A DNA stretch of 64,000 nt from an uncultured Lachnospiraceae bacterium (lineage in GTDB: Bacteria; Bacillota; Clostridia; Lachnospirales; Lachnospiraceae): NCBI GenBank assembly GCA_948989975.1, contig CARHSH010000001.1:82906-146905 (forward strand), written 5' to 3'. The position numbers and the translations under genes were made by a program. Positions 2,688 to 33,402 of this stretch are shown here, piece after piece. Below the pieces are notes generated by a model. It ran no database searches. It had not been told where the DNA came from and worked only from the letters and a program-made list of their open reading frames with translations. The stretch's first letter is position 1. Each line of letters opens with the position of its first letter.

Positions 2688-3569
2688 ATGAAAACGATAT
2701 TAATTTTAGGATCAACCGGATTTATAGGGAGAAATTTAAAGGAATGGTTTGAGAAAAAGAAACAGTACACGGTTTTATGTCCTAATCGCAAAGAACTGGA
2801 TTTGCTCGATGAAAATATGGCAGATTCCTTTTTGGCGGCGCATAAAATAGATGTGGTTTTTAATTGCGCAATATTTTCTCCAAAGTCGGAAATGGAAGAA
2901 TTGGAAGTGATTGAAAAGGATTTGCGTATGTTTCTGAACCTTGAAAAAAATAAAGATAAATTTGGCAAAATGTTTTATTTTGGCTCTGGGGCGGAATATG
3001 ATAAGACAAAGCCTATTGTACAAGTGAAAGAGACGGATATTGGGAAAAGCATTCCGAAAAGCAGATATGGCATGGTAAAATATGTAATTGGACAAATGAT
3101 AGATGGATCGGATAATATCTATAATATACGGATATGGGGACTGTTTGGGAAGTATGAAGACTGGTGGACGACATTTATATCGAATTGCTGTTGTAAAGCA
3201 ATTAAGGATTACCCAATTTCCATTCGAAAAGACACGTATTTTGATTATCTTTGGATAGAGGATTTTTGCAGAATTGCCGAATGGGCAGTTGGACATGAAT
3301 TTGAGAGCCATACATACCATGCAGGGAGCGGACGGCGTATCTTACTGTCAGAAATTGCAAAAATAGTAAGGGACGTCAGCGGCAGGGAATTAGACATTAT
3401 TATTTGCAATGAGGGGCTGGGCAATGAATATACGGCGGACAGCTCACGTCTGATGAAGGAATATGGAAAAGACTATGTTACCCCTATGGAAACGGCAATC
3501 AGGGAATTGTATACATGGTATGAAACGCATCCGGAAATTATCAGTATGCAGAAATTAATATATGGTTAA
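2688..3569 (+). CDS. NAD(P)-dependent sugar epimerase/reductase (SDR family)
   Basis: N-terminal GSTGFIG Rossmann motif. Length (293 aa) and composition are typical of dTDP-4-dehydrorhamnose reductase / GDP-fucose synthase-like enzymes. Confidence 0.55.
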   Translation: MKTILILGSTGFIGRNLKEWFEKKKQYTVLCPNRKELDLLDENMADSFLAAHKIDVVFNCAIFSPKSEMEELEVIEKDLRMFLNLEKNKDKFGKMFYFGSGAEYDKTKPIVQVKETDIGKSIPKSRYGMVKYVIGQMIDGSDNIYNIRIWGLFGKYEDWWTTFISNCCCKAIKDYPISIRKDTYFDYLWIEDFCRIAEWAVGHEFESHTYHAGSGRRILLSEIAKIVRDVSGRELDIIICNEGLGNEYTADSSRLMKEYGKDYVTPMETAIRELYTWYETHPEIISMQKLIYG

Positions 3570-3597
3570 AACTTTTAGAGATTGAGAGGAATTTAAA

Positions 3598-4599
3598 ATG
3601 AACGATATTTTTGAAAACAAGTCAGTGCTGATTACCGGAGGGACAGGTTCTTTGGGAAAGTATTTTACAAGATACATTCTGACGCATTTTAATCCGCATC
3701 GGGTAGTGATATTTTCGCGTGATGAATATAAACAGAGCATGATGAAACAGGAATTTGCGCAGTATGGGGATAAGCTGAGATTTTTTATCGGTGACGTGAG
3801 GGATAAAGACAGGCTTCTAAGGGCGTTCGACAGAGTGCAGATTGTAATTCATGCAGCAGCGATTAAACAGGTGCCGACTTGTGAATATAACCCGATAGAG
3901 GCTATTAGGACGAATATTAATGGGGCGATGAATGTCATTGACGCCGCGATTGACCGGAAGGTGGAGTGTGTTGTGGCGTTGTCAACGGACAAAGCGGTGA
4001 ACCCGGTAAACTTATATGGCGGAACAAAATTAGTTTCGGACAAGCTTTTTGTGGCGGCGAATGCCTATGCAAAAATTTCAGGGACAAAGTTTAGCGTTGT
4101 CCGGTATGGAAATGTGGCGGGCAGCAGGGGAAGCGTGATCCCGTTTTTTGAGAAACTTATGGCGGAAGGAAAGACAACGCTTCCGGTGACGGACGTGCGC
4201 ATGACGCGGTTTTGGATTGATTTGGAGCAAGGGGTTAAATTAATTTTAAAAGCTTTATATACGGCTGTTGGCGGCGAAGTTTTCGTTTCTAAAATACCTT
4301 CTTTTAAAGTGACGGATTTGGTAAAAGCCATGAATCCGGATGGTTCCATTGAGGAAGTCGGTATCCGTGAAGGGGAAAAGCTGCATGAAGTAATGATTAC
4401 AGATGTAGATTCAAGAAGGACGGTTGAATTAGGGGACTGTTATGTGATTATGCCGGAATTTTCATGGTATAAGCCAAATGAAGAAATAAAAGCGGGGAAA
4501 AAGCTTCCAGATGAATTTGTTTATAGTTCAGATAAAAATACGAGCTGGCTTTCTGTGGAACAGCTTCAAGAAAAATTAAAATTATATCGAAAGAAATAG
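3598..4599 (+). CDS. pseB: UDP-GlcNAc 4,6-dehydratase/5-epimerase (first step of pseudaminic acid biosynthesis)
   Basis: Collinear similarity to Campylobacter/Helicobacter PseB (FlaA1): ITGGTGSLGK, FFIGDVRDKDRL, LSTDKAVNPVNLYGGTKL, SVVRYGNVAGSRGSVIPFF, TRFWI. Confidence 0.85.
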   Translation: MNDIFENKSVLITGGTGSLGKYFTRYILTHFNPHRVVIFSRDEYKQSMMKQEFAQYGDKLRFFIGDVRDKDRLLRAFDRVQIVIHAAAIKQVPTCEYNPIEAIRTNINGAMNVIDAAIDRKVECVVALSTDKAVNPVNLYGGTKLVSDKLFVAANAYAKISGTKFSVVRYGNVAGSRGSVIPFFEKLMAEGKTTLPVTDVRMTRFWIDLEQGVKLILKALYTAVGGEVFVSKIPSFKVTDLVKAMNPDGSIEEVGIREGEKLHEVMITDVDSRRTVELGDCYVIMPEFSWYKPNEEIKAGKKLPDEFVYSSDKNTSWLSVEQLQEKLKLYRKK

Positions 4600-4609
4600 A
4601 GGGATTCAT

Positions 4610-6067
4610 TTGGAACGGTTTGAATTAACGGAAAAAACTAAACTATGGATTTACGGGGCAGCTTTTGGAGGAACGCTCTTATATGAAAAACTGCATAAGA
4701 ATCATTATCAGGTGGAAGGGTTTATAGATAAAAGGGCAGAGGAAATAGAGAGTTTATGCGGGCTTTCCGTCTATAGCGTAAAACAAGCCAAAGAACGTAT
4801 GGGACGTGGGCAGCTAACAGTCATTATTTCAGTGAAAAATGTGTTTGAACATAGCGGCATTGCCAGAGAGTTAATAAAAAATGGAATTACAAACATCATT
4901 TATAAGCCATATGCGGCTCTGAAAGGATTTGCAGACGAATCAGCAAAAGAAATGTTTGAGCTTCATAATCAGTTGATTGATTGCGGCTTTTGTAAGGGCG
5001 GCAGGTTTTGCAGGGCGGACGAAATAGAAAAGAATTGGGAAATCCCAAAAGAATATTTGCTGGCCAAAGATTCCAAAATGCAGACAGTTTTTCTGCCTCT
5101 GCCTATGCTGTTTGAAAACCAAAGCGTTACGGGCGGATATAAGGAACGGAATGTTTGTTTTTTATATCCGCATATACAATTCTTCCGGTATCTTCAAGGA
5201 GAAGCTGACGCTTCCTGCCAGCGCTATCTGGAGTATTGTGAGATGGCAGTGGAAGAATTGGATTCTTTTCAAGTTACGGAAGCGTGGAAAGAAAATGTGA
5301 TCCGAAACAGGGCAGATGTGTTTTACCAGATGAACCATGGGTTTTTGTTCCAGAAAGATTTTTTTGTCAGAAATTCGCCAGAGGCGGAATGGAATGAGGA
5401 CGGATACTTTAACTTGAAAAGCGGGAAGCACAGAGCGGCATTTTTTGCCGCCCGCCGTCAGATGTATATTCCCGTAAAGATCACTCATTCGGATGCAGAA
5501 AAATGGATTTCTGAGGATAGGGCAAATGAGGTGAAAAAAGAGCTTTTACAACAGGGCGTATTTGAATTAAAAGCTCCGGTTGAGCATCCATTTTTTTATC
5601 AGATGCCATGTACGGCAGAGAATTTTTTCTATGGCGTATGCTGCGCGTTGGCAGATGAACTCGGCGGGTTGTATTATCAAACGCCAATGGATCATGTATT
5701 GAAAGGCAAAAAGATATATTTGAATGTAGATGATTATGGGTTTGTCAGCCGTTTTTTCAGGAGAAGCGGGGCTATGGTATACGATGCCGATGAAAGGGAC
5801 CGGAAATTGAAAGAAGCGTTAGAAAGATTGTTTTCGCTTCATTTTGGAAGGCTTGTCGCCGCTCAGGAACATTACGACTTGGCGGTGTTTAAAACAGACT
5901 GCCCGCAAAATTTGAAGCAATGTCTGGAAACTATTTTGGCGGATCATTATTTTATCCTTGCCCCAGAGAGCATTTTGTTGGAAACTGAGTGGATAAAAAG
6001 AGTTTATTGTGGGGCTGCATGGGGAAAAAGCATGGTTTTGTGGCATTTGGAGAAATGTAATGTTTGA
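4610..6067 (+). CDS. Uncharacterised protein, paralog 1 of 3: NeuD/PglD-N-like Rossmann N-terminus plus central ParB/sulfiredoxin-like motif SGKHR
   Basis: 485 aa. N-terminus LWIYGAAFGG...YQVEGFIDKRAEE resembles the N-domain of NeuD/PglD acyltransferases. Motif FNLKSGKHRAAFFAARRQMYIPV resembles the ParB/Srx DGhHR-A-P signature. Homologous to 6060..7490 and 8555..9784. Confidence 0.5.
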   Translation: MERFELTEKTKLWIYGAAFGGTLLYEKLHKNHYQVEGFIDKRAEEIESLCGLSVYSVKQAKERMGRGQLTVIISVKNVFEHSGIARELIKNGITNIIYKPYAALKGFADESAKEMFELHNQLIDCGFCKGGRFCRADEIEKNWEIPKEYLLAKDSKMQTVFLPLPMLFENQSVTGGYKERNVCFLYPHIQFFRYLQGEADASCQRYLEYCEMAVEELDSFQVTEAWKENVIRNRADVFYQMNHGFLFQKDFFVRNSPEAEWNEDGYFNLKSGKHRAAFFAARRQMYIPVKITHSDAEKWISEDRANEVKKELLQQGVFELKAPVEHPFFYQMPCTAENFFYGVCCALADELGGLYYQTPMDHVLKGKKIYLNVDDYGFVSRFFRRSGAMVYDADERDRKLKEALERLFSLHFGRLVAAQEHYDLAVFKTDCPQNLKQCLETILADHYFILAPESILLETEWIKRVYCGAAWGKSMVLWHLEKCNV

Positions 6068-7490
6068 CATTCAAAAAGAGAGCAGGATAGTCCTTTACGG
6101 GCATTCGCAATTTGACATTGTGAAAGATAAATTCCGGGAACTAAAAGAACGTGGATATCAGGTGCTTGGATATATAGATCAAAGGGCAAAAGAGATTGAA
6201 ACGTATGTACAGGCGCCTTGTTGGACAGTAGAAGATTTTCCAGTTGGGCTAAAAGAACGTCAAGACATCGTAATTATATTGTTATTGCAAAATGCGCGGA
6301 TGCATGAGTCCATTGTATCTTCACTTTGCGGCAGGGGATTTAAAAAATTTTTATTTTTACCGGAAAAAGCGGATACATCTGAGAAAACATGTATGGTGCA
6401 AAAGTACAATGCCTTTATACGGTCAGAATATGATGAGTTGATGGGGATTCCTGAATGGGACAGCTTGTGTTTAAATTCTGTAAAAGGTGGAAAGCGGTTT
6501 TTGAAATGTGGAAAAGAACGCTGTACGCTTTTGGTTCCGGTGGAAATGCTGTTTCTTTATGAACAGGAGCAGTCTTTAGAAGAAAATATCGCGTTTGCAG
6601 AGGATTATCTGGAATTATTTGCGGTATTAGAAGGAAAGGCATTTGAATGCGGACGTTATTTTAATTTCATGGGAGCGGTGGAGAAGGAAGAAAAAGAAAA
6701 ATTACTGGCTGACCGTTTGGCGTTATATTGTTTGTGGGAACATTACAGACACTGCGATATAAATTATTTTATAGAAGCGGCTGCGCTTGTTTCATGGAAC
6801 CGGAGAGGATATTTTAATATTATTGACGGGCATCATAGAGTGATTTATCTGATGGCAAAGGGGTATAAGAAGATTCCCGTATCCATGCCGCTTAAAGATT
6901 ATGATAAGTGGATAGGAGAGGCAGATCAGGCATTGTCCGCTGCGCTGCGCAGATTGCGCGTCCCAATTCCACATCCGTTTTTTTTGAATGAAGAATGTAT
7001 CTATGAAACGCACTGGCAGAAAGTGATTCATTATTTATATGCGGCAGGACAAAGCAGGGACTGCAGGTTTGTGGAAATAGATACTTATATGGGATATTAT
7101 GCGGGGGCTTTCCAGAGAATTGTAAAAAAAGAAGCTCTGATAGTTTTAGAGAATGAGACGGATAAACGCTTATGTGAAAGTATGCAAAGGCTCATGCATC
7201 AAAAAATACCCATTTTGAACTATCCAGAAGTTATGTTTCGCGAAACCGATCTTGTCTATCTGAAATTGGCTGGAAATGAGGAAGCGTCTTTTATGCGTTT
7301 TATAAAGGACGTAACTGGACAGTGTATTTTGCTGGATATTCCTTGGGAAGAAGAAGGGAAGACGTTAAAAGAGGCTGTCCGCATTCTTGGGGGAGATTTG
7401 AAACAGATAGGCAGTTATCATAGAGATAAGGCGTATGGAATTTATGTGATTGAAAGGAGTGTTGGCAATTATGGCAGAGGTGACGACTAG
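6060..7490 (+). CDS. Uncharacterised protein, paralog 2 of 3 (NeuD-N-like plus ParB/Srx-like DGHHR)
   Basis: Start ATG at 6060 overlaps the stop of paralog 1 by 8 nt (RBS GGAGAAATG). Motifs: IVLYGHSQF...YQVLGYIDQRAKEIE; FNIIDGHHRVIYLMAKGYKKIPV. Confidence 0.5.
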   Translation: MFDIQKESRIVLYGHSQFDIVKDKFRELKERGYQVLGYIDQRAKEIETYVQAPCWTVEDFPVGLKERQDIVIILLLQNARMHESIVSSLCGRGFKKFLFLPEKADTSEKTCMVQKYNAFIRSEYDELMGIPEWDSLCLNSVKGGKRFLKCGKERCTLLVPVEMLFLYEQEQSLEENIAFAEDYLELFAVLEGKAFECGRYFNFMGAVEKEEKEKLLADRLALYCLWEHYRHCDINYFIEAAALVSWNRRGYFNIIDGHHRVIYLMAKGYKKIPVSMPLKDYDKWIGEADQALSAALRRLRVPIPHPFFLNEECIYETHWQKVIHYLYAAGQSRDCRFVEIDTYMGYYAGAFQRIVKKEALIVLENETDKRLCESMQRLMHQKIPILNYPEVMFRETDLVYLKLAGNEEASFMRFIKDVTGQCILLDIPWEEEGKTLKEAVRILGGDLKQIGSYHRDKAYGIYVIERSVGNYGRGDD

Positions 7491-8496
7491 AAGCCTTAAA
7501 AATGAAAGGACAATACTGCGGGACGTTGTCCCGGTGGACACGCCTTTTTTATTAGGCATATTTTTAGGCGATATATGTAATTTTAAATGTAAATACTGCA
7601 TTCAGTCTGCAGATGAATCCGTTGAGGAGAAAAAACAGTTAGTAAGGAAATTTTTAGAGTGGGAAACATTTCTTAAAATTGCAGATTCTGCAAAACAATT
7701 TCCGAAGAAAATTAAAACGGTATTGCTGACAAGCATCGGGGAGCCTTTACTGCATCCGGAAATTGTAAAGATGTTAGAGTATATGAACCGGATTGGGCTG
7801 GCGGATAACTATGAAATCATTACAAATGCATCTATGCTTTCTGTAGATTTGGGAAGACAATTAGTGGATGCAGGGCTTACAAGATTATGCGTTTCGCTTC
7901 AGGGGCTGACGGCGGAAAAATATAAAGACGTCTGCGGCGTAGAGATAGACTATGATGCATTTTACCAAAATTTAAAGAGTTTTTACGAATACAGCAGGGG
8001 AAAGTGCAGCGTACATATTAAGACAGTGGATCTTTCGTTAGAGGACGGTGAAGAAGACGCATTTCTAAAACTCTATGGTCCGATATGCGACACGATTTAC
8101 ATTGATAAAGTCGCTCCGGTGTTTAAAGGCGTAGATTATAGCGGCATTGTGCTTGACGGGGAGCCTTATACAGAAGATAAATACAGGCAAAATGCGGCTG
8201 TGTGCTGTAGTTCTATTTTTTATACATTGTATACGCTTGCGGACGGACGGATCGCTCCTTGTTGTGACCATCCGCAGCCGGTTATTTATGGGGACATTAA
8301 CCAGACTGGGCTTGTGGAAGCATGGTCTTCTGAAAATAGAAAACGGTTTTTAAGACAGCATTTGACCCATAAAAGATGCGAAAACGGCATTTGCGCACAG
8401 TGCGCCGCGCCGCTTGTAAGAGAGTTTGACAGTGATAAGTTAGATGGCTGTGAGGAAGCAATCTTGGCCCGTTTAGAGGGGGGTATTTTTCATTAA
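7471..8496 (+). CDS. Radical SAM enzyme with C-terminal SPASM/twitch-type Cys-rich domain
   Basis: CNFKCKYC (Cx3Cx2C) near the N-terminus. C-terminal cysteines CCSS...CCDHPQP...CENGICAQC. RBS GGAG sits 12 nt upstream of ATG 7471; the track's alternative start is TTG at 7450. Confidence 0.7.
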   Translation: MAEVTTRSLKNERTILRDVVPVDTPFLLGIFLGDICNFKCKYCIQSADESVEEKKQLVRKFLEWETFLKIADSAKQFPKKIKTVLLTSIGEPLLHPEIVKMLEYMNRIGLADNYEIITNASMLSVDLGRQLVDAGLTRLCVSLQGLTAEKYKDVCGVEIDYDAFYQNLKSFYEYSRGKCSVHIKTVDLSLEDGEEDAFLKLYGPICDTIYIDKVAPVFKGVDYSGIVLDGEPYTEDKYRQNAAVCCSSIFYTLYTLADGRIAPCCDHPQPVIYGDINQTGLVEAWSSENRKRFLRQHLTHKRCENGICAQCAAPLVREFDSDKLDGCEEAILARLEGGIFH

Positions 8497-8554: not shown

Positions 8555-9784
8555 ATGGGTTCCGTCACAGGAAAAGCTTTGTTGGAAAATGGAAAGCGGA
8601 TATGTGGGTTTATAGACAAACGGGCAAAGGACATACGCCAATGCATCGGGTATCCGGTCTATGACATTGAGACATTGAAAAAGAAAGCGGGCAGACACGC
8701 TGTGATTTTTGTGGCGGTGAAAAATGTTTTTTATCATATGGACATTGCAGTGGAATTGTACGCAAATGGCTTTGAGAGAATTATATATAAGTCATGCCAT
8801 GCCATTCATGGAACGATGTCAGGGGAAGAACAGTTATTAGATAAGGCGTATGAACTGATATATAAAACAGGGGACATTCCGGATTTTGAGATACCTATTG
8901 TACTGCCAAAACAGGAATTTCAATGGACGCCAAGCAGGATTCTTTTAGAAACAGAGGAATATGTGACATTGAACGCGCCGTTAGAACAGATTTATACGGG
9001 AGTGACTGCGGCGAAATGGACAAATACGCCCGTTTTGTCATTAATTCCGTATATTGAACTGTTCCGTTATTTTGAAGGGGACAGCCAGTGCAGGCCAGAT
9101 GATTATATTGCGCTTTGTGAGGAAGGGGCGCGGAGTGAACAGATTGAAATAACGGATAGTTGGAAGCAATATGCGCTCGAAAACCGGTTTCATATTTTCG
9201 GGCAAATGCGGTGGCAGTATGAACATGAACCTGAGTTTTTTACCGTACAGGCGCCAGAGGCGGCATGGGACAAAAGGGGATATTTCCGCCTGCTGACCGG
9301 CAAGCACAGGATTTGTTTTTTGATTGCGATGGGAAAGACAAGCGCGCCGCTGAAAATTCGCAAAGACACATGGAGGGCGATCTGTGAAGATCCTAAATTA
9401 CATGAAATCCGCCAGATCTTAGAACGCAGCCCAAATGCGCAAATGCCGCTTCCGCACATTTATTTTCAGGGAAACCGGCAGTTTCATTGTATATTTTATC
9501 AAAAAAAGCTGAGAGAGATTTATTGGCAGATGTACAAAACCGGACAAATGTGTGGGCAGGAAAGAGAAACTTTAGAAATTCTCGATCAGACGCAGGACAG
9601 CGGATATTTTTCCCTGATATTTTCACAGATGGGCTTTTGCGTCTACAGGGATTTCAGGCTGTCTTCCGATAAGAATGAAATTTATCAGAAATTGGGAATG
9701 AAAATTTCAGAACGGGCAGATAGCGCTTCAAAAACGCGGATAAAGCTGGATGGGGAGGGAAATTTTCAAAATGAAAACGACTGA
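8555..9784 (+). CDS. Uncharacterised protein, paralog 3 of 3 (ParB/Srx-like TGKHR); N-terminal Rossmann motif partly lies upstream of the only in-frame ATG
   Basis: FRLLTGKHRICFLIAMGKTSAPL. The in-frame upstream codons encode EEVYIYGASY, which aligns to LWIYGAAFGG in paralog 1, but there is no ATG/GTG/TTG between the stop at 8474-8476 and ATG 8555. Confidence 0.45.
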   Translation: MGSVTGKALLENGKRICGFIDKRAKDIRQCIGYPVYDIETLKKKAGRHAVIFVAVKNVFYHMDIAVELYANGFERIIYKSCHAIHGTMSGEEQLLDKAYELIYKTGDIPDFEIPIVLPKQEFQWTPSRILLETEEYVTLNAPLEQIYTGVTAAKWTNTPVLSLIPYIELFRYFEGDSQCRPDDYIALCEEGARSEQIEITDSWKQYALENRFHIFGQMRWQYEHEPEFFTVQAPEAAWDKRGYFRLLTGKHRICFLIAMGKTSAPLKIRKDTWRAICEDPKLHEIRQILERSPNAQMPLPHIYFQGNRQFHCIFYQKKLREIYWQMYKTGQMCGQERETLEILDQTQDSGYFSLIFSQMGFCVYRDFRLSSDKNEIYQKLGMKISERADSASKTRIKLDGEGNFQNEND

Positions 9785-11315
9785 TTTAGAGTTTGAATAC
9801 AATGAGCGGGCAGACGGCTATATTTATGTGAATGAAGACAAGTTAGAAACAGAGGTAAAAGAATTGCTCCGGTCGGGAAAAGACGTTGAAGCGCTGCGCA
9901 TGAACGAAGAAATTTCAAGGGAGGCCTATCTGTGCCTTACAAAAAAACGGGAAGCTGTTTTAAAGTGGTACCATTTCAAAGAAGAATCTGAGATTTTAGA
10001 GATTGGAGCCGGATACGGGGAACTGACAGAATATCTTTGCCGCCACAGCAGGCATGTGACGAGTTATGAGAGGAAAACCGAGCGCGCCGACATTATTAAA
10101 ATGCGCTGCCAGCCATATGGGAATTTGGACTGCCATTCCGGTTTATTACAAGATATGCGTTGGCAAAAGACATATGATTATATATTTTTGCATGATATTT
10201 TAGCATTATCCCGAAAGTTTTTTAAAGGGGAAGATGCAAGCGTAGAGATGCTTAAGTTTTTGCTTCCATATCTTAAAGAAGACGGAAAATTTATCATAAC
10301 GGTTGAAAACCGTCTTGGGCTTAAGTATTTTGCCGGGGCGGCAGAAGAAATTTCCTCACAGTTTTTTTGGGGGCTTAATCTTTTTGACGAAGATGAAAGA
10401 GGCAGGACATTTTCAAGAAAAGAATTGGAACGGGTTCTGCAAAAAAGTGGTTTAGAAAATATAAATTGGTTTTATCCGTATCCTGATTTGGCATATCCGT
10501 TAGAGATTTATACAGATGAAGTCATGGATAAAATGGGATATGGGATCTCTATGCCGGATTATGAAATTGTTTCAGACCGTTATCAGTTTTTTGATGAGCA
10601 GAGAATGTTTTGGGCTTTAAGGAACGAGGGGATTGCAAATCGGTTTGTGAATGCGTTTTTTGTGGAATGTTCCAGAAAAGAATCCGGCAAACAGCTTTTA
10701 TTTGCGGATTTAAAAAATGGATTTACCATAAAGGAACAGACAGAACAAGGCTTTATAGACGGGAGTGGGAATCTTCTTCCTAAAGGGGAACGGCTCGATG
10801 TGTATCTGGCAGGAAAACTTCAGGAAACCGTGAATTGCAATCTGGGCGGCAAGAATCCATTTATATCTGAAATTTATGATGTGTTCCGTGAAATATATTT
10901 GTATTTACAGAAGTCTTTTTGCAGGATACAGGATTTCTATTATTCAGACGGCAAGATTGCGCTGCATGAACAAAAGCAAGAGAAAAAACCGGCGTCGGAG
11001 TATTGGCGCTGGGAATTGGTTTATGAATGGTATTTCAGGCATGTCATGTTTTACAGAAACGCAAAAAGAAGAATTTTGCTGGAAGATTTGCTGGAGATTG
11101 TACAGGTAAACACCGGGCATATTGCAGAATATTTGAAGGTTTGGAAAGATAAGTCAGAGAAGCATTATATTACGCCGAGATTGTCGCAGAATATGTTTGA
11201 TTTTGAAGCGGAAGCGGCAAAGGATGCGAGGTATTTTGGGCAGGAACTAATAAATAAAAGGACATTAAAAGATAAATTGGAAAGTATGTGGAGCATAGGC
11301 GGGGAAACGGAATGA
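9771..11315 (+). CDS. Class I SAM-dependent methyltransferase with ~300-aa C-terminal extension of unknown function
   Basis: LEIGAGYGELTEYL (motif I) and DYIFLHDIL. RBS GGGGAGGG upstream of ATG 9771. Overlaps the end of the preceding gene. Confidence 0.55.
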   Translation: MKTTDLEFEYNERADGYIYVNEDKLETEVKELLRSGKDVEALRMNEEISREAYLCLTKKREAVLKWYHFKEESEILEIGAGYGELTEYLCRHSRHVTSYERKTERADIIKMRCQPYGNLDCHSGLLQDMRWQKTYDYIFLHDILALSRKFFKGEDASVEMLKFLLPYLKEDGKFIITVENRLGLKYFAGAAEEISSQFFWGLNLFDEDERGRTFSRKELERVLQKSGLENINWFYPYPDLAYPLEIYTDEVMDKMGYGISMPDYEIVSDRYQFFDEQRMFWALRNEGIANRFVNAFFVECSRKESGKQLLFADLKNGFTIKEQTEQGFIDGSGNLLPKGERLDVYLAGKLQETVNCNLGGKNPFISEIYDVFREIYLYLQKSFCRIQDFYYSDGKIALHEQKQEKKPASEYWRWELVYEWYFRHVMFYRNAKRRILLEDLLEIVQVNTGHIAEYLKVWKDKSEKHYITPRLSQNMFDFEAEAAKDARYFGQELINKRTLKDKLESMWSIGGETE

Positions 11316-20474: not shown

Positions 20475-20483
20475 AAGCAGGTG

Positions 20484-26212: not shown

Positions 26213-26872
26213 ATGAATGATATTATCCTAATCGGCTCTGGAGGCTGTATGCGGGAGCTGGTCTGGCAGATACAGCAGTTGAACGGGGAATGCCGTGTAT
26301 GGAATATTTTAGGCTATGTTGACAAAGCCGATCGGTCCGGCGTTTCCGACATAAAAGTTTCCGGCCAGAGCATTCCCTATCTTGGCGGAGATGACTTCCT
26401 TTTACGCCGGACCGAACAGACGAATGCCGCTATATGTGTCGGGAATCCTTCCTTACGGAAAAAAATTGCCAAGAACATACAGAAAAACCCGCATATCTGT
26501 TTTCCTAATTTAATTTTAGGCAATGTAAAAATCTGCTCTGACGTACAAATCGGGAAAGGCTGTATTATCAGTATGGACGCCCGTATTTCTACGAATGTTG
26601 CATTGGGGGATTTTGTTTTTTTAAATATGGGAAGCGGGATCTGCCATGACGGAAAAATTGGAAATTATGTCACATTAAGCCCAGATGTGCGTCTTGCCGG
26701 AAACGTAACCGTGGAAGAAGGCTGTGACATTGGCATGGGAGCAAAGATTATACAGGGCAGGCATATCGGTGCAAATGCAGTGATCGGGGCAGGAAGCGTC
26801 GTCATCACTGACATAGCGGCTGGCTGCATGGCGGCCGGCGCGCCGGCAAAGGAGAAGAAGAAAAAAATATGA
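26213..26872 (+). CDS. NeuD/PglD-family hexapeptide sugar N-acetyltransferase (LegH-like)
   Basis: IILIGSGGCMRELVWQI...ILGYVD N-domain, plus left-handed beta-helix repeats (GNVTVEEGCDIGMGAKIIQGRHIGANAVIGAGSVV). Confidence 0.7.
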   Translation: MNDIILIGSGGCMRELVWQIQQLNGECRVWNILGYVDKADRSGVSDIKVSGQSIPYLGGDDFLLRRTEQTNAAICVGNPSLRKKIAKNIQKNPHICFPNLILGNVKICSDVQIGKGCIISMDARISTNVALGDFVFLNMGSGICHDGKIGNYVTLSPDVRLAGNVTVEEGCDIGMGAKIIQGRHIGANAVIGAGSVVITDIAAGCMAAGAPAKEKKKKI

Positions 26873-27858
26873 GCGTCACTATTATCGCCGAAGCAGGCGT
26901 AAACCATAATGGCAGTTTCACGCTTGCGAAGAAAATGGCAAAAGCCGCAAAAGATTCCGGAGCGGATTATGTCAAGTTCCAAACATTTAAACCGGAAAAT
27001 TTAGTTTCAAAATATGCCGCAAAAGCTGATTACCAAAAAGCATCTGGCAGTCAGGACGAAAACCAGTTGCAAATGTTAAAAAAGCTTGCCTTAACGGAAC
27101 AGGATTTTTTGGCATTAAAGCGGTACTGTGAAAGCATCGGGATCGGATTTTTGTCTACACCGTTTGATTTGGACAGCATAGAATTTCTAGATACCATAGG
27201 CATGGATTTCTGGAAATTGCCGTCTGGGGAAATTACAAATTATCTTTATTTAGAAAAAATTGCAAAGACGAAGAAAAAAATCGTTTTGTCCACGGGCATG
27301 TGTGAGATTTCAGAAATTCGGGACGCTATAACTGTTTTGAATAAAAACGGCGCAGCGGATCTTACGCTTTTGCATTGCAATACGGAATACCCGACGCCTT
27401 TTGCAGACGTAAATTTGCTCGCTATGCATCATTTAAAACGGGAATTTCAAATGCCTGTCGGATATTCTGACCATACGATTGGCATTGAAGTCCCCATTGC
27501 CGCCGCCGCGCTTGGCGCAGTTGTAATAGAAAAGCATTTTACGCTTGACAGAAATATGGAAGGCCCGGATCAGAAAGCCAGCTTAGAGACCAAAGGGCTT
27601 CGTCAAATGATACGCGCAATCCGCAATATAGAACGCAGCATGGGCGATGGTTATAAACGCCGCTCGCCTTCCGAAGAAAAAAACCTTGCCGCCGCCAGAA
27701 AAAGTCTTGTCGCAAAACGCGCGATCCGCAAAGGAGAGCTTTTTACAGCGGAGAACCTGACTGCAAAACGTCCGGGAAATGGGATAAGCCCGATGAAATG
27801 GAACGAAGTTTTAGGCATGGCGGCCGAAAAAGATTATGAGGTGGACGAACTGATATGA
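26869..27858 (+). CDS. legI: N-acylneuraminate/legionaminate synthase (NeuB family)
   Basis: IIAEAGVNHNGS, YVKFQTF, GYSDHT, IEKHFTLDR. Sits within the leg-type gene run. Confidence 0.75.
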   Translation: MSVTIIAEAGVNHNGSFTLAKKMAKAAKDSGADYVKFQTFKPENLVSKYAAKADYQKASGSQDENQLQMLKKLALTEQDFLALKRYCESIGIGFLSTPFDLDSIEFLDTIGMDFWKLPSGEITNYLYLEKIAKTKKKIVLSTGMCEISEIRDAITVLNKNGAADLTLLHCNTEYPTPFADVNLLAMHHLKREFQMPVGYSDHTIGIEVPIAAAALGAVVIEKHFTLDRNMEGPDQKASLETKGLRQMIRAIRNIERSMGDGYKRRSPSEEKNLAAARKSLVAKRAIRKGELFTAENLTAKRPGNGISPMKWNEVLGMAAEKDYEVDELI

Positions 27859-29006
27859 AAAAAATTGCAGTGGTTACAGCGACGCGGGCAGAATATGGGA
27901 TCTTGCGGCCTTTACTGGAACGTTTGGAAAAAGAGCCGGAATTTCAGCTTTTACTTTATGTAACGGGAACCCATCTGGTTTCCCAATACGGAAATACACA
28001 GACAGAAATAGAAGCTGACGGCATAGCGGTTCACAGAAAAATCCCAATCTTAGAAAGCGGGAACACGCCATATGCGGTGTCCCTGACAATGGCAAACGCA
28101 ATCCGTGGATTTGCGGATGCGTTTGCGCAGGATAAACCCGATTTTTTAGTGGTCTTAGGAGATCGTACAGAATTGCTTGGGATATGCAGCGCGGCTATGA
28201 ACGAACGAATCCCAATCGCCCATCTGCATGGCGGGGAATTGACCGAAGGGGCTGTAGACGATTGCGTCCGCCATGCCGTCACGAAAATGAGTTACCTGCA
28301 TTTTGCGGCGGCGGAGCCTTACCGGCAGCGGATTATCCAGATGGGGGAAGCGCCGGAACGCGTATTTAACGTTGGCGCGCTTGGCGTGGAAAATACATTA
28401 AACGTTCCGCTTTTCAGCCGTGAAGAACTTTGTGAAGAAATCGGGATTCCTGCTAATCTCAGGTATGCAGTCGTTACCTTTCACCCAGTTACATTAGAAG
28501 CGGAATGCGCCGTTGAACAGACGAAAGCATTGTTAGATGCGATTCAGGAAGAAAACCAATTTTTCTATCTGATTACAAAAGCGAACGCAGACGTCGGCGG
28601 TGAAATAGTCAATACATTGTGTGAACAGTTCGCAAAACAAAACAGCCATGTGAAACTGACTGCTTCGCTTGGCATGAAGCGTTATTTAAGCGCAGTCAAA
28701 TACAGCGCATTCGTACTGGGCAATTCATCAAGTGGAATTATTGAAGCTCCCGCGCTTGGCGCGCCTGCCGTCAACATTGGGAACCGCCAGAAAGGAAGGC
28801 TTATGGCGGATACTGTAATTTCCTGTGGAAATACAAAAGATGAAATAGCGGCCGCTATGAAAAAAGCCATTCGGACGGAACGGAAAAAATCCATTCTCTA
28901 TGGAAGCGGGGGAACTTCTGAGAAAATAATAAAAACGCTTAAAGAAGTGTTACAGGGCGGGAACATAAATCTGGAAAAACAGTTTTACGATTGGAGAATG
29001 AAATGA
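27855..29006 (+). CDS. legG: Hydrolysing NDP-GlcNAc 2-epimerase (NeuC/LegG family)
   Basis: KIAVVTATRAEYGILRPLL, VLGDRTE, HLHGGE. Confidence 0.75.
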   Translation: MKKIAVVTATRAEYGILRPLLERLEKEPEFQLLLYVTGTHLVSQYGNTQTEIEADGIAVHRKIPILESGNTPYAVSLTMANAIRGFADAFAQDKPDFLVVLGDRTELLGICSAAMNERIPIAHLHGGELTEGAVDDCVRHAVTKMSYLHFAAAEPYRQRIIQMGEAPERVFNVGALGVENTLNVPLFSREELCEEIGIPANLRYAVVTFHPVTLEAECAVEQTKALLDAIQEENQFFYLITKANADVGGEIVNTLCEQFAKQNSHVKLTASLGMKRYLSAVKYSAFVLGNSSSGIIEAPALGAPAVNIGNRQKGRLMADTVISCGNTKDEIAAAMKKAIRTERKKSILYGSGGTSEKIIKTLKEVLQGGNINLEKQFYDWRMK

Positions 29007-29689
29007 AGCAAATCGCAGTCATTCCGGCAAGAAGCGGCTCGAAGGGATTGAAAGATAAAAACATTAAAGTCTTAAACGGAAAACCAATGATGGCGTATAC
29101 CATAGAGGCGGCATTAAACTCCAAATTATTTGACTGCGTCCACGTTTCTACAGACAGCGCGCAGTACGCTTCCATAGCAAAACAGTATGGCGCAGACGTT
29201 CCTTTTTTACGGGATAAGGAGCTGGCAGATTCAAAAGCCAGCACATGGGACGCCCTTCGGGATGTCATTCAAAAGTATAAAGAAGCAGGGCGGGAATTTG
29301 ACGCTGTGACGCTGTTACAGCCTACGTCTCCGTTAAGGAGCGCTGCAGACATTAGGGAAGCGCACTGCATTTTTCAGGAGAAAAACGCTGATTCCGTCGT
29401 AAGCGTCTGTCAAATGGAGCACCCAATACAGATTTGCAATACACTTGGAGAAAACGGCTCTCTCTATCAGTTTCTTGACAGCAACCGAATCGGAGCAAGG
29501 CAGGATCAGGCTGTTTACTACCGTATCAATGGCGCAATTTATATTTTGAAATTATGGATGCTTTTGGAAAAAGAAAATATTTATAATAAAAACTCATACG
29601 CATATATTATGAGTAAAGCGCATTCGGTCGATATTGATGATTATTTAGATTTTAAATTGGCGGAAATTCTGGCAAAGGAAAATTTCTAA
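29003..29689 (+). CDS. legF: CMP-N-acylneuraminate/legionaminate cytidylyltransferase
   Basis: QIAVIPARSGSKGLKDKNI, LLQPTSPLR. ATGA overlap with the upstream gene. Confidence 0.75.
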   Translation: MKQIAVIPARSGSKGLKDKNIKVLNGKPMMAYTIEAALNSKLFDCVHVSTDSAQYASIAKQYGADVPFLRDKELADSKASTWDALRDVIQKYKEAGREFDAVTLLQPTSPLRSAADIREAHCIFQEKNADSVVSVCQMEHPIQICNTLGENGSLYQFLDSNRIGARQDQAVYYRINGAIYILKLWMLLEKENIYNKNSYAYIMSKAHSVDIDDYLDFKLAEILAKENF

Positions 29690-29766
29690 GAGAATCGAGC
29701 GCGTATGCCGATATAAAAGGCAGAGACCTATCAGGGAGGATATGGAACAAACATGGAGGTTGCCCT

Positions 29767-30840
29767 ATGAATGCAGAAAAATTGATGTCATTTTTAATCT
29801 CCCCCGATCATACTGTGGTAGAAGCTATGCAGAAAATCGACAGTAACGCGAGGGGAATTTTATTTGCGGCAGATGAGAGCCGGAAATTATTAGGCGTTGT
29901 GACGGATGGAGATATCCGCAGATGGCTGATTAAAACGGGAGAATTAAAAGGTTCTATAGAAAGCGTGATGAACCGCAGCCCGAAAACCATACGTCCGGAT
30001 AAAGTTTCCGCTTCCAGAGAATACATGGAAAAATTAGTGATTACGGCGCTGCCTGTCGTAAACGAAAGCGGGATTATCTGCGATGTTATATTTCGGGAGC
30101 CAAAGGAAGGCGGATGCATCAAACGGAAAGGCCATTTGGATAGCGTTTCCGTTGTAATTATGGCGGGAGGAAAAGGGACAAGGCTGTATCCTTTTACAAA
30201 AATACTTCCGAAACCGCTTATTCCGATCGGGGATATTCCAATAATGGAACGTATTATAAATAAATTCCGCGAGTTTGACGTCAAAGATTTCTATGTTACG
30301 GTGAATTACAGGAAAAATATGATTAAATCATATTTTTCGGAAATCAGCTCGGACTATTCGATCTCTTATGTAGAAGAAGACAAGCCGCTTGGAACGGCGG
30401 GAAGCCTTGGGCTGATTCCGGCAAATTTTGAAAAACCGTTTCTGATTACAAATTGCGATATTTTAATCCATGCGGATTATAGCGATATATACCGCCATCA
30501 CATAGAATCTGGAAATGAACTTACAATAGTAACTGCTTTAAAAAATATTGTAGTTCCATATGGCGTGATACATTCAGGAGAAAATGGAGGAATCGAGCGG
30601 CTTGAAGAAAAGCCGAAGCTTTCTTATTTTGTTAATACCGGAATGTATATTTTAAATCCGGATATACAACATGAAATTCCGCAAGAAACATTTTTCCATA
30701 TGACTGATTTGGCGGATAAATTGTTAAAAGAAAACCGGAAAGTGGGTATGTACCCTATCAGCGAAGATTCCTTTTTGGATATGGGGGAATTTGAGGAAAT
30801 GCGCCGTATGGAAGAAAAATTAAATATGAAGACGGAATAA
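29767..30840 (+). CDS. CBS-domain plus sugar-phosphate nucleotidyltransferase (PtmE-like GlcNAc-1-P guanylyltransferase)
   Basis: N-terminal tandem CBS region, then VIMAGGKGTRLYPFTKILPKPLIPIG. Confidence 0.65.
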   Translation: MNAEKLMSFLISPDHTVVEAMQKIDSNARGILFAADESRKLLGVVTDGDIRRWLIKTGELKGSIESVMNRSPKTIRPDKVSASREYMEKLVITALPVVNESGIICDVIFREPKEGGCIKRKGHLDSVSVVIMAGGKGTRLYPFTKILPKPLIPIGDIPIMERIINKFREFDVKDFYVTVNYRKNMIKSYFSEISSDYSISYVEEDKPLGTAGSLGLIPANFEKPFLITNCDILIHADYSDIYRHHIESGNELTIVTALKNIVVPYGVIHSGENGGIERLEEKPKLSYFVNTGMYILNPDIQHEIPQETFFHMTDLADKLLKENRKVGMYPISEDSFLDMGEFEEMRRMEEKLNMKTE

Positions 30841-30866
30841 GCAGGAGGAAAAAGGAGGCATTTAAT

Positions 30867-31847
30867 ATGAAGAAAGCGCTTGTAACAGGTGCGGACGGGT
30901 TTATCGGGAGCCATTTGACGGAAAGCCTTTTAGAAAAAGGCTATCAGGTAAAAGCATTTGTTTATTATAATTCATTTAATAACTGGGGGTGGCTGGATAC
31001 GCTGCCCAAAGAGAAGTTAAGCCAGATTGAAATTTTTTCAGGCGACGTCAGAGATCCGAATGGCGTGCGGGAAGCGATGAAAGGCGTAGATTTGGTATTT
31101 CATTTAGCAGCGCTTATCGCAATCCCATTTAGCTACCATTCTCCGGATTCTTATGTGGATACGAATATTAAGGGGACACTAAACGTTTTGCAGGCGGCAA
31201 GGGAGCTAAACACGGAGCGTCTGCTTGTCACGTCCACTTCAGAAGTGTATGGAACTGCGCAGTATGTTCCTATTGACGAAAAGCATCCGTATCAGGGGCA
31301 GTCGCCATATTCCGCGACCAAAATTGGGGCAGACCGTCTGGCAGAGAGTTTTTACCGCAGTTTTAAGCTTCCGGTGACGATTGTGCGCCCATTTAACACA
31401 TACGGGCCAAGACAGTCTGCAAGAGCGGTGATCCCAACGATTATTACCCAGCTTTTGGCGGGGAAAGATGAGATCAAACTGGGTTCTTTGGCCCCGACAA
31501 GAGATTTCAACTATGTCAAAGACACTGCGGCAGGCTTTCTTGCAATCGCTAAATCCCAAAAAACGATCGGCGAAGAAATCAATATAGCGACGCAACAGGA
31601 GATTTCCATTGGAGATTTGGCAAACGAAATTATTTCTCAAATCCGTCCGTCCGCTAAAATCATTTGCGATGAAGCAAGGCTGCGGCCTGAAAAAAGCGAA
31701 GTCAACCGTTTGCTTGGCTCAAATGAAAAAATTATGCGGCTCACGGACTGGAAACAGCAATACACGTTTGCCCAAGGGATTTCCGAAACCATTGAATGGC
31801 TCCGCCATCATATGGATGCTTATAAAACAGATATTTATAATGTATAG
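30867..31847 (+). CDS. legB: NAD-dependent GDP-GlcNAc 4,6-dehydratase (LegB-like)
   Basis: ALVTGADGFIGSHL, YSATK, extended SDR. Placed before a DegT aminotransferase, as in leg loci. Confidence 0.65.
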   Translation: MKKALVTGADGFIGSHLTESLLEKGYQVKAFVYYNSFNNWGWLDTLPKEKLSQIEIFSGDVRDPNGVREAMKGVDLVFHLAALIAIPFSYHSPDSYVDTNIKGTLNVLQAARELNTERLLVTSTSEVYGTAQYVPIDEKHPYQGQSPYSATKIGADRLAESFYRSFKLPVTIVRPFNTYGPRQSARAVIPTIITQLLAGKDEIKLGSLAPTRDFNYVKDTAAGFLAIAKSQKTIGEEINIATQQEISIGDLANEIISQIRPSAKIICDEARLRPEKSEVNRLLGSNEKIMRLTDWKQQYTFAQGISETIEWLRHHMDAYKTDIYNV

Positions 31848-31859
31848 GGGAGAAATGTT

Positions 31860-33047
31860 ATGAGCCGTTATATACCATTGTCTATTCCGAATTTTGAAGG
31901 AAATGAAAAAAAATATGTTCTCGATGCAGTTGAACAAGGCTGGGTTTCTACGGGAGGGGCGTATATTACAAAACTTGAACGGATGCTGGCGGATTATCTG
32001 CATACGGAGGAGGCTGCCGCCTGTCAAAGCGGCACAAGCGGGATACATCTTGCGTTAATAGAATGTGGGGTTTTGCCGGGCGACATGGTTTTAGTTCCGA
32101 CTCTAACATTTATTGCGGCTGTGAATCCGGTGCGTTACCAGTTTGCAGAGCCTGTGTTTTTGGACTGTGATAAGAGTCTGTGCGTCGACCCTGTCAAACT
32201 GCGTCAATTTTGCGAACAAGAGTGTACGTTAAAAGAAAACCGCCTTGTCCATAATCTGACCCAAAAAACCGTAAAAGCGCTGATCGTTGTGCATGTTTTT
32301 GGAAATTTTGCCGATATGGAAGCGATTATGGAAATAGCGGAAACGTACCATATTAAAGTGATTGAAGATGCGACGGAAAGTTTGGGAAGCCGGTACGAAA
32401 AGGGGCGTTTTGCCGGAAAGTATGCTGGCGCGATAGGGGATTTCGGTGTATTCTCCTTCAATGGAAATAAAATTATTACAACGGGCGGGGGCGGCGCAGT
32501 CACTGCAAAAAATGCGGAAACAGTCCGCCATATCCGCTATCTGTCCACACAGGCAAAAGATGATCCGCATTTTTATATACATGATGAAGTCGGTTATAAC
32601 TACCGCATGACGAACTTACAAGCGGCGCTTGGAGTGGCGCAAATGGAAAAATTAGAAGAATTTATTGAGCGGAAGCATAAAAATTATGAGCTGTACCGTG
32701 AATTGTTTTCTGATTTTGCATATGGGAAACTGCTTGGGTTCCGTGAAGACACGTATTCCAATCAGTGGTTTTATGCGTTAGAGTTAAATGGAAAACTAAA
32801 GTTTCCGCTTCGGAATCTGATTGAACGGCTGGAGACTTTCGGCGTGCAGACAAGAGCAGTCTGGGGGCTGATTCACAGGCAAAAGCCGTATCAGAATTGC
32901 CTTGCCTATGAAATGGAACGGGCGCCTTATTATAGCGGCTGTATTTTAAATCTGCCTTGCAGTACGCAAATTACAGAAGAAGAAATCCGTTATGCGGCGC
33001 AGACCATACAAAGAGAAATAGAATCATGGAGGATAACAGATGATTGA
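31860..33047 (+). CDS. legC: DegT/DnrJ/EryC1/StrS aminotransferase (LegC-like)
   Basis: 395 aa. GWVSTGGAYITKLERMLADYL, VIEDATESLGSRY. Confidence 0.7.
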   Translation: MSRYIPLSIPNFEGNEKKYVLDAVEQGWVSTGGAYITKLERMLADYLHTEEAAACQSGTSGIHLALIECGVLPGDMVLVPTLTFIAAVNPVRYQFAEPVFLDCDKSLCVDPVKLRQFCEQECTLKENRLVHNLTQKTVKALIVVHVFGNFADMEAIMEIAETYHIKVIEDATESLGSRYEKGRFAGKYAGAIGDFGVFSFNGNKIITTGGGGAVTAKNAETVRHIRYLSTQAKDDPHFYIHDEVGYNYRMTNLQAALGVAQMEKLEEFIERKHKNYELYRELFSDFAYGKLLGFREDTYSNQWFYALELNGKLKFPLRNLIERLETFGVQTRAVWGLIHRQKPYQNCLAYEMERAPYYSGCILNLPCSTQITEEEIRYAAQTIQREIESWRITDD

Positions 33048-33402
33048 AAATAGAGATGAGCAAAAAGAGGCATTGGAAGTTTTGCTTGGGTTTAATGAAC
33101 GTTTGGTGAAAAACATGAAATTAGTTGCAAAGGAGTTAAAAGACGGAAGGTTAGACGATACCGAAGCGTTTTTAAATGACATTACGCAAGCGATGAATTG
33201 GGAGATTCAAGTTGTCAATGGGACGTTGGATTTGCTGAATGAAGGAAAAGAGCGTCTGGATAAAGTAAGATTTAATGAGAAGATCCAAGCGTTAAGCGGC
33301 GCAATCGCATCCAAAGACGACAAACAAATGGCGGAAACGTTTCTGGAGGCTGTTTCTGTGTTTGAGGAGCTTGGCGCTGCGGCGAAAGAGGTTGTTTCCT
33401 AA
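33040..33402 (+). CDS. Hypothetical 120-aa protein (acidic, helical) overlapping the legC stop
   Basis: RBS GGAGGATAACAGATG. No recognisable motif. Confidence 0.35.
   Translation: MIENRDEQKEALEVLLGFNERLVKNMKLVAKELKDGRLDDTEAFLNDITQAMNWEIQVVNGTLDLLNEGKERLDKVRFNEKIQALSGAIASKDDKQMAETFLEAVSVFEELGAAAKEVVS

Follow-up and report, generated by a model that had tools for sequence, protein, structure and literature searches.

Known flagellar glycosylation systems and the present locus

The closest known system to the locus described here is the flagellar glycosylation locus of Campylobacter jejuni. Our subject is a co-directional block of sugar genes at positions 2688 to 33402 of a 64-kb stretch of DNA from an uncultured Lachnospiraceae bacterium (contig CARHSH010000001.1; "the window" below means this whole stretch of 64,000 nucleotides), and we judge this block, with a probability of about 0.8, to be the distal half of a ~56-kb flagellar glycosylation island (FGI) of ~51 genes that extends from flagellin to the last gene of the block (33040 to 33402). 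The locus Cj1293-Cj1342 of C. jejuni and Campylobacter coli resembles it in its ~50 genes beside flagellin, in the pairing of pseudaminic acid (Pse) genes with genes for GDP-route legionaminic acid (Leg), for which Campylobacter has PseB, C, H, G, I, and F and PtmE plus LegB, C, H, G, I, and F, in its Maf-type transferases and cytoplasmic O-glycosylation, and in the homopolymeric G tracts that switch glycan-modifying genes (PMC3068675, PMC13130089). The present locus differs in belonging to a member of the Bacillota, in encoding a single Maf instead of a maf family, in having GT-A enzymes of a different family, and in additionally carrying CDP-dideoxyhexose genes with YerE-like enzymes as well as heptose, transketolase, and radical-SAM genes. 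Moreover, two of its G tracts lie in units of a leader open reading frame (ORF) and a terminator rather than in coding regions.

Gram-positive counterparts are the FGIs of Clostridium butyricum, Clostridium botulinum, and Clostridium sporogenes, which likewise lie between flagellar genes, are predicted to combine CMP-Pse with CMP-Leg or Pse with a 3,6-dideoxyhexose, encode Maf with a small factor (GlfM), and include non-Maf GT2 candidates for transfer to flagellin (PMC13317340). This 2026 survey weakens the view, taken in an original prediction made from the letters of the window, that Pse, Leg, and a dideoxyhexose in one locus are unusual; the sugar combination alone is not new. The island described here is, however, much larger, and the survey makes no mention of thiamine diphosphate (ThDP)-dependent (YerE-type), radical-SAM, or heptose genes and uses the term "phase variation" once in its main text (PMC13317340).

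A third point of comparison is provided by the Maf/GlfM systems of Shewanella and Kurthia, in which maf again stands beside flagellin and a small conserved ORF (bioRxiv 10.1101/2023.12.03.569772). The likeness is one of gene position, although the small ORF found here (orf113) is upstream of maf, whereas GlfM is generally encoded downstream. As the Maf protein here is 632 amino acids (aa) long with a long C-terminal helical region, it may be autonomous. Our literature searches returned no account, for Lachnospiraceae, of glycosylated flagellins or of phase variation at homopolymers, no YerE-type, radical-SAM, or transketolase modules in an FGI, and no homopolymer contingency tracts in an FGI of a Gram-positive commensal.

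Flagellin, Maf, and the sugar genes form a single island

The original prediction had suggested a flagellin or S-layer glycosylation island of 31 kb and proposed a search of the flanks for the corresponding structural genes. We walked upstream along a 231-kb metagenomic contig (ERZ14651291 NODE_17) that is contiguous with the window and 99.96% identical to it over 12.7 kb (99.96 to 99.985% across comparisons). A tblastn search with Bacillus subtilis Hag detected no flagellin gene, either in the window or in the 20 kb upstream of it, and flagellin was reached only at the third step of the walk, ~22 kb upstream of window position 1. The run of glycan genes is unbroken as far as the gene for a Maf/MptE-like transferase (PF01973), which is followed by a small conserved ORF and the flagellin gene(s); fliS, fliD, flaG, csrA, and fliW come next on the same contig. 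The sugar genes run ~23 kb past the left end of the window, so that the full island measures ~56 kb instead of 31 kb. In the orientation of the window, its order is as follows.

Start: fliW-csrA-flaG-fliD-fliS, a GT-B-like glycosyltransferase, flagellin (one or two copies), orf113, maf, heptose genes
Middle: poly-G leader, TIGR04372 glycosyltransferase, radical-SAM enzymes, split transketolase, HldE-like enzyme, B12-radical-SAM enzyme
End: divergent module (Epi295, TPP594, rSAM, SDR, GT2, acetyltransferase), GT561, poly-G leader, GT571, window genes 2688 to 33402

An ORF of 158 aa and a Glyco_trans_1_2 protein are encoded between flagellin and FliS. Maf (PF01973), two genes from flagellin, is 35% identical to the Maf beside flagellin in a related human-gut locus (L016), and orf113 (113 aa, between flagellin and maf) is 31% identical to the equivalent ORF there. 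In L016, flagellin and Maf stand among homologues of the glucose-1-phosphate cytidylyltransferase, RfbH, CDP-glucose dehydratase, HldE, GmhA/B, and PseB/H/I/G. A scan of metagenome contigs with the protein SDR327, which recovered relatives up to 86% identical, yielded the comparative loci; a scan of genome contigs with the B12-radical-SAM protein recovered a single match, 72% identical, in a Lachnospiraceae metagenome-assembled genome (MAG). Flagellin copy number differs between near-identical strains, with one 370-aa gene in L091 (13577 to 14689) and two tandem 372-aa genes in L092 (13577 to 16035).

Every long ORF between 2688 and 33402 is on the + strand, as predicted, and inspection of the ORFs confirmed that genes overlap or meet in ATGA at 11312, 13961, 14869, 24039, 27855, and 29003; the gene count is ~30 rather than the ~33 first given. 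At the right border, the last island gene is followed by an XRE-type gene and then by a flavin mononucleotide (FMN) riboswitch and rib operon.

33040..33402, + strand: p120, protein of 120 aa, last island gene; no family match; NCBI name "molecular chaperone"

Neither a PDB sequence search with p120 nor its comparison with orf113, FliS, and Maf gave a match or detectable similarity; it is a possible candidate for an adaptor of flagellin or a transferase. The riboswitch directly after the island is at 33990 to 34151 and the ribD-ribE-ribBA-ribH operon at 34259 to 38173. The window, a chromosome segment of the Clostridia type, has a GC content of ~0.42 and a strong positive GC skew. Proteins of the host have exact matches in hundreds of metagenome assemblies, where they are labelled "MAG: Eubacterium sp." (HFI81 locus tags); the host is a common uncultured gut Lachnospiraceae. 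SpoVT and a chemoreceptor are also encoded in the window, and the latter shows a motile lifestyle.

We assigned families by Pfam and NCBIfam scans with NCBIfam cut-offs (equivalog level for the Pse, Leg, and CDP-sugar assignments). In agreement with the original prediction, these scans found no Wzx, Wzy, Wzz, ABC exporter, or priming transferase. A hydropathy scan detected no integral membrane protein from flagellin to the rib operon, every island protein having at most one hydrophobic segment; this absence fits cytoplasmic glycosylation before export. A further link to the flagellum is given by promoter motifs, one of which precedes the window operon.

42..668, + strand: 3' end of GT561, a 561-aa paralogue of GT571 (42% identity); its 5' part is upstream of the window
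684-710, + strand: SigD/sigma-28-type motif TAAAG-N16-TCCGATAT, directly ahead of the window operon and matched nowhere else in the 64 kb
966..2681, + strand: GT571, soluble glycosyltransferase (GT-A, GT2-type) that has an SDED (DXD-type) motif and, at its C terminus, a four-helix bundle

SigD-type motifs (TAAA-N14-17-CCGATA) are found upstream of orf113-maf and of both long glycosyltransferase operons, and the flagellin promoter has the same motif with one mismatch (GACGATAT). L091 contains three matches against 0.3 expected, a number reached by none of 100 shuffles. Such promoters would co-express the sugar operons with flagellin. An additional exact motif (TAAA-N17-GCCGATA) lies within the TIGR04372 glycosyltransferase gene on the opposite strand (L007 3282-3308, -; L091 7728-7754, +), and may be due to chance or be an antisense promoter facing the gmhA operon.

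Thus, the flagellin half of the original prediction is supported by the adjacency of flagellin and Maf, by L016, by the SigD-type motifs, and by the lack of membrane proteins, while the S-layer half found no support. The same observations bear on a classical capsule, O-antigen-like, or teichoic-type polysaccharide locus, with assembly and export genes elsewhere and flagellin nearby only by accident. Such a locus would suit the best fold matches of GT571, which are the wall teichoic acid glycosyltransferases RmlT, TarS, and TarP, and also heptose and 3,6-dideoxyhexose/yersiniose, classically polysaccharide components (PMC9306805; PMC4753412). We nevertheless consider it highly improbable, given that the region from approximately -29 kb to +64 kb lacks Wzx, Wzy, Wzz, an ABC transporter, a priming transferase, and any polytopic membrane protein, that Maf and flagellin are inside the island, that SigD-type promoters precede its operons, and that L016 has flagellin amid the same gene set.

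Predicted pseudaminic and legionaminic acid pathways

The genes assigned to the two nonulosonic acids, with a class III aminotransferase gene among them, are as follows.

3598..4599, + strand: PseB, UDP-GlcNAc 4,6-dehydratase (inverting); 508 bits, cut-off 408
16274..17065, + strand: CTP_transf_3 cytidylyltransferase, KdsB/SpsF-like; candidate CMP-nonulosonate synthetase
17079..18389, + strand: class III aminotransferase, glutamate-1-semialdehyde aminomutase-like
18414..19454, + strand: PseI, pseudaminic acid synthase; 469 bits, cut-off 340
19470..20474, + strand: PseG, UDP-sugar hydrolase; 170 bits, cut-off 154
20481..21611, + strand: PseC aminotransferase; 495 bits, cut-off 424
21622..22074, + strand: GNAT acetyltransferase, PseH candidate; 38 bits, below the cut-off of 93
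26213..26872, + strand: NeuD/PglD-family N-acetyltransferase, LegH role; above the NCBIfam cut-off
26869..27858, + strand: NeuB-type synthase, LegI role; above the cut-off and named N,N'-diacetyllegionaminate synthase by one source
27855..29006, + strand: NeuC-type hydrolysing 2-epimerase, LegG role; above the cut-off
29003..29689, + strand: CMP-nonulosonate synthetase, LegF role; 191.6 bits on the PseF model, cut-off 205.7
29767..30840, + strand: CBS plus sugar-1-phosphate nucleotidyltransferase, PtmE-like
30867..31847, + strand: LegB 4,6-dehydratase; 518 bits, cut-off 475
31860..33047, + strand: LegC aminotransferase; 448 bits, cut-off 420

Both routes had been described as complete. For Pse, this holds for PseB, PseC, PseG, and PseI, all of which exceed their equivalog cut-offs, but the PseH candidate falls short of its cut-off and the adjacent cytidylyltransferase is KdsB/SpsF-like, scoring 20 bits on the PseF model. 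For Leg, equivalents of PtmE, LegB, LegC, LegH, LegG, LegI, and LegF are all represented, the CMP-transferase being just under the PseF cut-off. The gene content is that of a Leg pathway with a predicted GDP route.

CDP-dideoxyhexose genes and two YerE-like modules

Between the Pse and Leg genes lie those for a CDP-4-keto-3,6-dideoxyhexose.

22156..22935, + strand: second glucose-1-phosphate cytidylyltransferase-like protein; 283 bits, just below the cut-off of 300
22981..24042, + strand: CDP-glucose 4,6-dehydratase; 436 bits, cut-off 278
24039..24812, + strand: glucose-1-phosphate cytidylyltransferase; 358 bits, cut-off 300
24829..26172, + strand: RfbH/DdhC-type CDP-6-deoxy-4-keto-hexose 3-dehydrase (E1); 710 bits, cut-off 423

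The predicted route is borne out insofar as equivalents of DdhA, DdhB, and DdhC are all above their cut-offs, but it has no E3 reductase of the DdhD/AscD type. Some E1 homologues rely on general cellular reductases. Other genes of the block, together with the divergent operon upstream of the window (Epi295, TPP594, rSAM337, SDR310, GT2_323, and an acetyltransferase), suggest what becomes of the CDP-sugar.

2688..3569, + strand: Epi293, RmlD/epimerase-type SDR, candidate 4-keto or branch reductase; 46% identical to upstream Epi295
7471..8496, + strand: radical SAM/SPASM enzyme, paralogue of upstream rSAM337
12159..13964, + strand: TPP603, YerE-like ThDP-dependent carboligase; 42% identical to upstream TPP594
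13961..14872, + strand: aldo/keto reductase, candidate acyl-branch reductase (YerF-like role)

TPP603 has as its best PDB match the YerE-like JanthE (8rph; E = 1.6e-100), with 340 bits as opposed to 236 for the best acetohydroxyacid synthase; JanthE is matched by TPP594 as well. By this comparison with JanthE, both are candidate members of the YerE clade. Each of the two YerE-like modules is accompanied by an RmlD-like reductase (Epi293 or Epi295) and holds a radical SAM/SPASM paralogue.

In the yersiniose A pathway of Yersinia pseudotuberculosis (DdhA-D, YerE, and YerF; cf. erwiniose and caryophyllose), the enzyme series predicted here is found, namely, glucose-1-phosphate cytidylyltransferase, dehydratase, E1, ThDP carboligase, and reductase; YerE couples pyruvate to its natural acceptor, CDP-4-keto-3,6-dideoxy-D-glucose, and YerF reduces the branch afterwards (PMC9306805). 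The predicted RfbH product here is that same acceptor, CDP-4-keto-3,6-dideoxyglucose. From this coincidence, the aldo/keto reductase that follows TPP603, and the RmlD-like reductases, we infer branched sugars: the CDP-dideoxyhexose genes probably feed one or two C4-acyl-branched (yersiniose-type) sugars and not a plain dideoxyhexose. The present locus differs from the Yersinia pathway in its lack of DdhD, in its pair of divergent YerE-like enzymes, each accompanied by radical SAM/SPASM and RmlD-like proteins, and in the destination of the product, which would go onto flagellin and not lipopolysaccharide; its substrates and products are those predicted from sequence.

Heptose cassette, tailoring enzymes, and candidate transferases

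The + strand operon in the middle of the island comprises the poly-G leader, the TIGR04372-family glycosyltransferase (526 aa; 174 bits), rSAM353, the N and C subunits of a transketolase, rSAM369, an HldE-like kinase/nucleotidyltransferase, and the B12-radical-SAM enzyme, and GmhA, GmhB, and an SDR are encoded between Maf and this operon. This combination of heptose, transketolase, radical SAM/SPASM, and HldE-like genes is a cassette that probably makes a modified heptose or higher sugar. A conserved cassette of GmhA/GmhB, SDR (64 to 86% identical), HldE-like protein, two radical SAM/SPASM enzymes, and split transketolase recurs across human gut, freshwater, marine, and other metagenomes (among loci L011 to L090; e.g., L025, L032, L037, L041, L053, and L055).

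Further genes of the block encode potential tailoring enzymes and a protein with a weak nucleotidyltransferase match.

4610..6067, + strand: unk485, first paralogue of an uncharacterised family
6060..7490, + strand: second unk485-family paralogue, 476 aa as called
8555..9784, + strand: third unk485-family paralogue, 409 aa
9771..11315, + strand: class I S-adenosylmethionine (SAM) methyltransferase, 514 aa, with a long C-terminal extension
11312..12178, + strand: protein of 288 aa with a weak NTP_transf_2 (nucleotidyltransferase) match
14869..15571, + strand: SAM methyltransferase gene, frameshifted (OFF) in the window
15598..16293, + strand: intact SAM methyltransferase, 231 aa, paralogue of its interrupted neighbour

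The unk485 family consists of ~250 uncharacterised proteins from Lachnospiraceae, Roseburia, and Treponema. An AlphaFold2 model of unk485 (pLDDT 90) has a PglD_N/C2185-like Rossmann N terminus, a central domain with an invariant G-x-H-R motif, and a methyltransferase-like C-terminal fold. The model bears no resemblance to a glycosyltransferase and found no full-length structural relative, and a PDB search with the family profile gave only marginal matches to the N-terminal Rossmann region. We treat these proteins as predicted tailoring enzymes.

The island encodes six candidate transferases: GT571, GT561, GT2_323, the TIGR04372 protein, the Glyco_trans_1_2 protein, and Maf. GT571, for which a PDB sequence search gave no match, is a candidate for a flagellin or glycan-extending transferase. 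In a point of difference from the Clostridium islands, its model lacks a tetratricopeptide repeat array and has the four-helix C-terminal bundle instead; by analogy, the helical-bundle adaptor concept of Maf/GlfM may extend to this bundle.

Taken together, the island very likely serves to attach several rare sugars to the flagellar filament. Soluble cytoplasmic enzymes would make CMP-pseudaminic acid, CMP-legionaminic acid, the CDP-4-keto-3,6-dideoxyhexose, and a modified NDP-heptose or higher sugar, and the methyltransferases, radical-SAM enzymes, and unk485-family proteins would probably tailor them. Maf, perhaps with orf113, would then move the nonulosonic acids onto Ser/Thr residues of flagellin before export, and the GT-A and GT-B enzymes would attach the remaining sugars. 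Several points weigh against this reading. A single Maf would have to serve two nonulosonic acids; the part of the island in the window is 25 to 56 kb from flagellin; the nearest structural relatives of GT571 glycosylate wall teichoic acid, not proteins; the PseH and PseF assignments are weak; and family scans of the island and window did not find a ferredoxin-NADP-reductase-type E3, the usual partner of E1. The acceptor and the sugar products are read from genes, and some modules could serve another acceptor.

In the spore crust of B. subtilis, the sps genes use a legionaminic acid pathway. This raises the alternative of a shared island, in which the flagellin-proximal part serves flagellin and another part (e.g., the Leg block or the branched-sugar modules) modifies a different surface structure, such as the S-layer, the exosporium or crust of the spore, or further secreted proteins. 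The presence of the sporulation regulator gene spoVT, the single Maf, and the distance of the window genes from flagellin all agree with such a division. On the other hand, no S-layer, spore-coat, or alternative acceptor gene is found in or beside the island, and the window operon, which belongs to a co-directional, tightly coupled block, is headed by a SigD-type promoter resembling the one before flagellin. We regard this division as unlikely and retain flagellin as the probable acceptor for the island as a whole.

Homopolymer tracts and probable phase variation

The original prediction had placed two homopolymeric G tracts inside the block. Only one, at 15009 to 15017, falls within 2688 to 33402; the other, at 761 to 770, is upstream of it. 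Comparison of assemblies from different samples, which are 99.97 to 100% identical over 6.7 to 21.7 kb and differ by indels solely at homopolymers, revealed five variable runs in the island.

Tract 1, in the 37-codon leader ORF upstream of the TIGR04372 glycosyltransferase: G9, G10, or G11; alters the leader frame
Tract 2, in the B12-radical-SAM gene: intact at G9, split at G8
Tract 3, 761..770, + strand: G10 here and G9, G13, and G14 in other samples; 9 nucleotides (nt) before the leader ORF start, upstream of GT571
Tract 4, 15009..15017, + strand: G9 here (OFF); G8 (ON) and G10 (OFF) in other samples
A/T run, in the GT2_323 gene: intact at T8, split at T7

Tract 4 interrupts the methyltransferase gene listed above, where a 233-aa ORF, colinear with the next gene, is recovered at G8 or G11. 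Among 24 long contigs it was G8 (ON) in 3, G9 (OFF) in 18, and G10 (OFF) in 3. Counts of index blocks gave a similar picture: the neighbouring gene, the OFF product of the methyltransferase, and the G9-specific fragment were found in 578, 482, and 429 blocks with contigs of at least 10 kb and in 959, 727, and 515 of all blocks, respectively. Among the 53 homopolymers of at least 7 nt common to two or more samples, length varied in all four G tracts and in 1 of 49 A/T tracts. Length changes thus switch reading frames, and lengths are polymorphic between near-identical genomes, as in contingency loci. G9 runs are not enriched in the G-skewed window (3 matches versus 1.16 expected, reached by 14 of 100 shuffles); with their occurrence at chance level, the significance of the tracts rests on the length polymorphism.

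These differences might instead be sequencing or assembly artefacts, or fixed strain differences, and not reversible phase variation. Indeed, all of the tract lengths come from consensus short-read assemblies, which are error-prone at long G runs, a point that counts against phase variation, as does the lack of over-representation of G9. Against artefact speak the confinement of the variation to four of four G tracts and 1 of 49 A/T tracts in otherwise near-identical genomes, the recurrence of the same tract states over many independent assemblies (in the 515, 727, and 959 blocks mentioned above), the location of the tracts at typical contingency positions (5' coding parts and transferase leaders), and the existence of tracts in other Lachnospiraceae islands. 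Artefact or fixation is, in our estimate, rather unlikely, and we continue with phase variation as the preferred explanation.

The tracts of related Lachnospiraceae islands also lie in glycan genes: L016 17388 (G8), L025 1792 and 4467 (G10), L039 20626 (G10), and L006 14552 (G9). The L016 tract splits a PseH-like gene and that of L039 is in an HldE-like gene, both being out of frame in the sampled assembly; one of the L025 tracts occupies codons 4 to 7 of a protein that, judged by eye, has an unk485/C2185-like N terminus.

The two intergenic tracts share a layout in which a SigD-type promoter is followed by the poly-G tract and a 37-codon leader ORF, then by a hairpin resembling a terminator, which begins at the stop codon of the leader, and finally by the glycosyltransferase gene. 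In the window, the parts downstream of tract 3 are the following.

780..893, + strand: 37-codon leader ORF (MNNFALDRF...MMRK)
892..917, + strand: terminator-like hairpin and U run starting at the leader ORF stop codon; dG -12.6 kcal/mol, z -4.0

The hairpins of the two leaders have dG values of -12.6 and -13.3 kcal/mol (z of -4.0 and -2.9). The leader regions gave no convincing DNA alignment, the layout being common to them and the sequence not, and a scan for the sigma-70 consensus around the G tracts was uninformative. At tract 1, G9 or G12 places the end of the leader at the hairpin foot, G10 carries the leader through the hairpin, and G8 or G11 stops it ~50 nt short of the hairpin. Since tract length sets the leader end, ribosome position could decide termination. 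The poly-G leaders could thus be putative phase-variable attenuators, in which tract length sets how far, or how often, ribosomes reach the terminator.

The hypermutable homopolymers (four poly-G and one poly-A/T) would switch single tailoring and transferase genes, producing mixed flagellar glycoforms in a clonal population. We tentatively propose the fuller scheme, with the odds somewhat against its holding in every part, of a Campylobacter-like contingency system in which at least five homopolymers independently toggle the methyltransferase, the B12-radical-SAM enzyme, the GT2 protein, and two glycosyltransferase operons, joined to the leader attenuation device and to YerE-type branched octoses and a heptose altered by transketolase and radical-SAM enzymes on flagellin. 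Should this doubtful combination prove true, the poly-G leader attenuator would be a regulatory device without earlier description, and the branched octoses and modified heptose would be new to flagellins; the putative attenuator is in any case a testable new regulatory layout.

In the gut, both innate and adaptive immunity of the host are directed in large measure at Lachnospiraceae flagellins. The island suggests that an abundant commensal coats its filament with rare sugars in an unusually complex assortment, varied stochastically as in the pathogen Campylobacter; if true, this would bear on immune recognition of commensal flagella, on phage receptor variation, and on the heterogeneity of strains within metagenomes. 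For rare-sugar chemistry, the island offers a compact set of candidate enzymes, with its two YerE-like carboligases, four radical SAM/SPASM enzymes, one B12-radical-SAM enzyme, split transketolase, and unk485 family.

Other features of the window

Four further features lie to the right of the island. A single 661-aa ORF (38271 to 40256) that heads a biotin operon fuses BioW (6-carboxyhexanoate-CoA ligase) to a BioF-like aminotransferase. At 42858 to 45625, a nucleotidyltransferase, an APH-family kinase, and a histidine phosphatase are adjacent and unrelated to the island; the first two resemble a sugar-recycling pair of the MurU/AmgK type. Two full-length TwoAYGGAY RNA motifs (135 and 120 bits) stand divergently at 48840 to 49005 (-) and 49636 to 49801 (+), between the PBP1A and ROK kinase genes, and flank a 116-bp tandem repeat of 3.5 copies (49004 to 49413). 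Finally, genes for an HsdS-like specificity subunit and an N6-methylase of a type I restriction-modification system (61131 to 63990, -) occupy the right end of the window.

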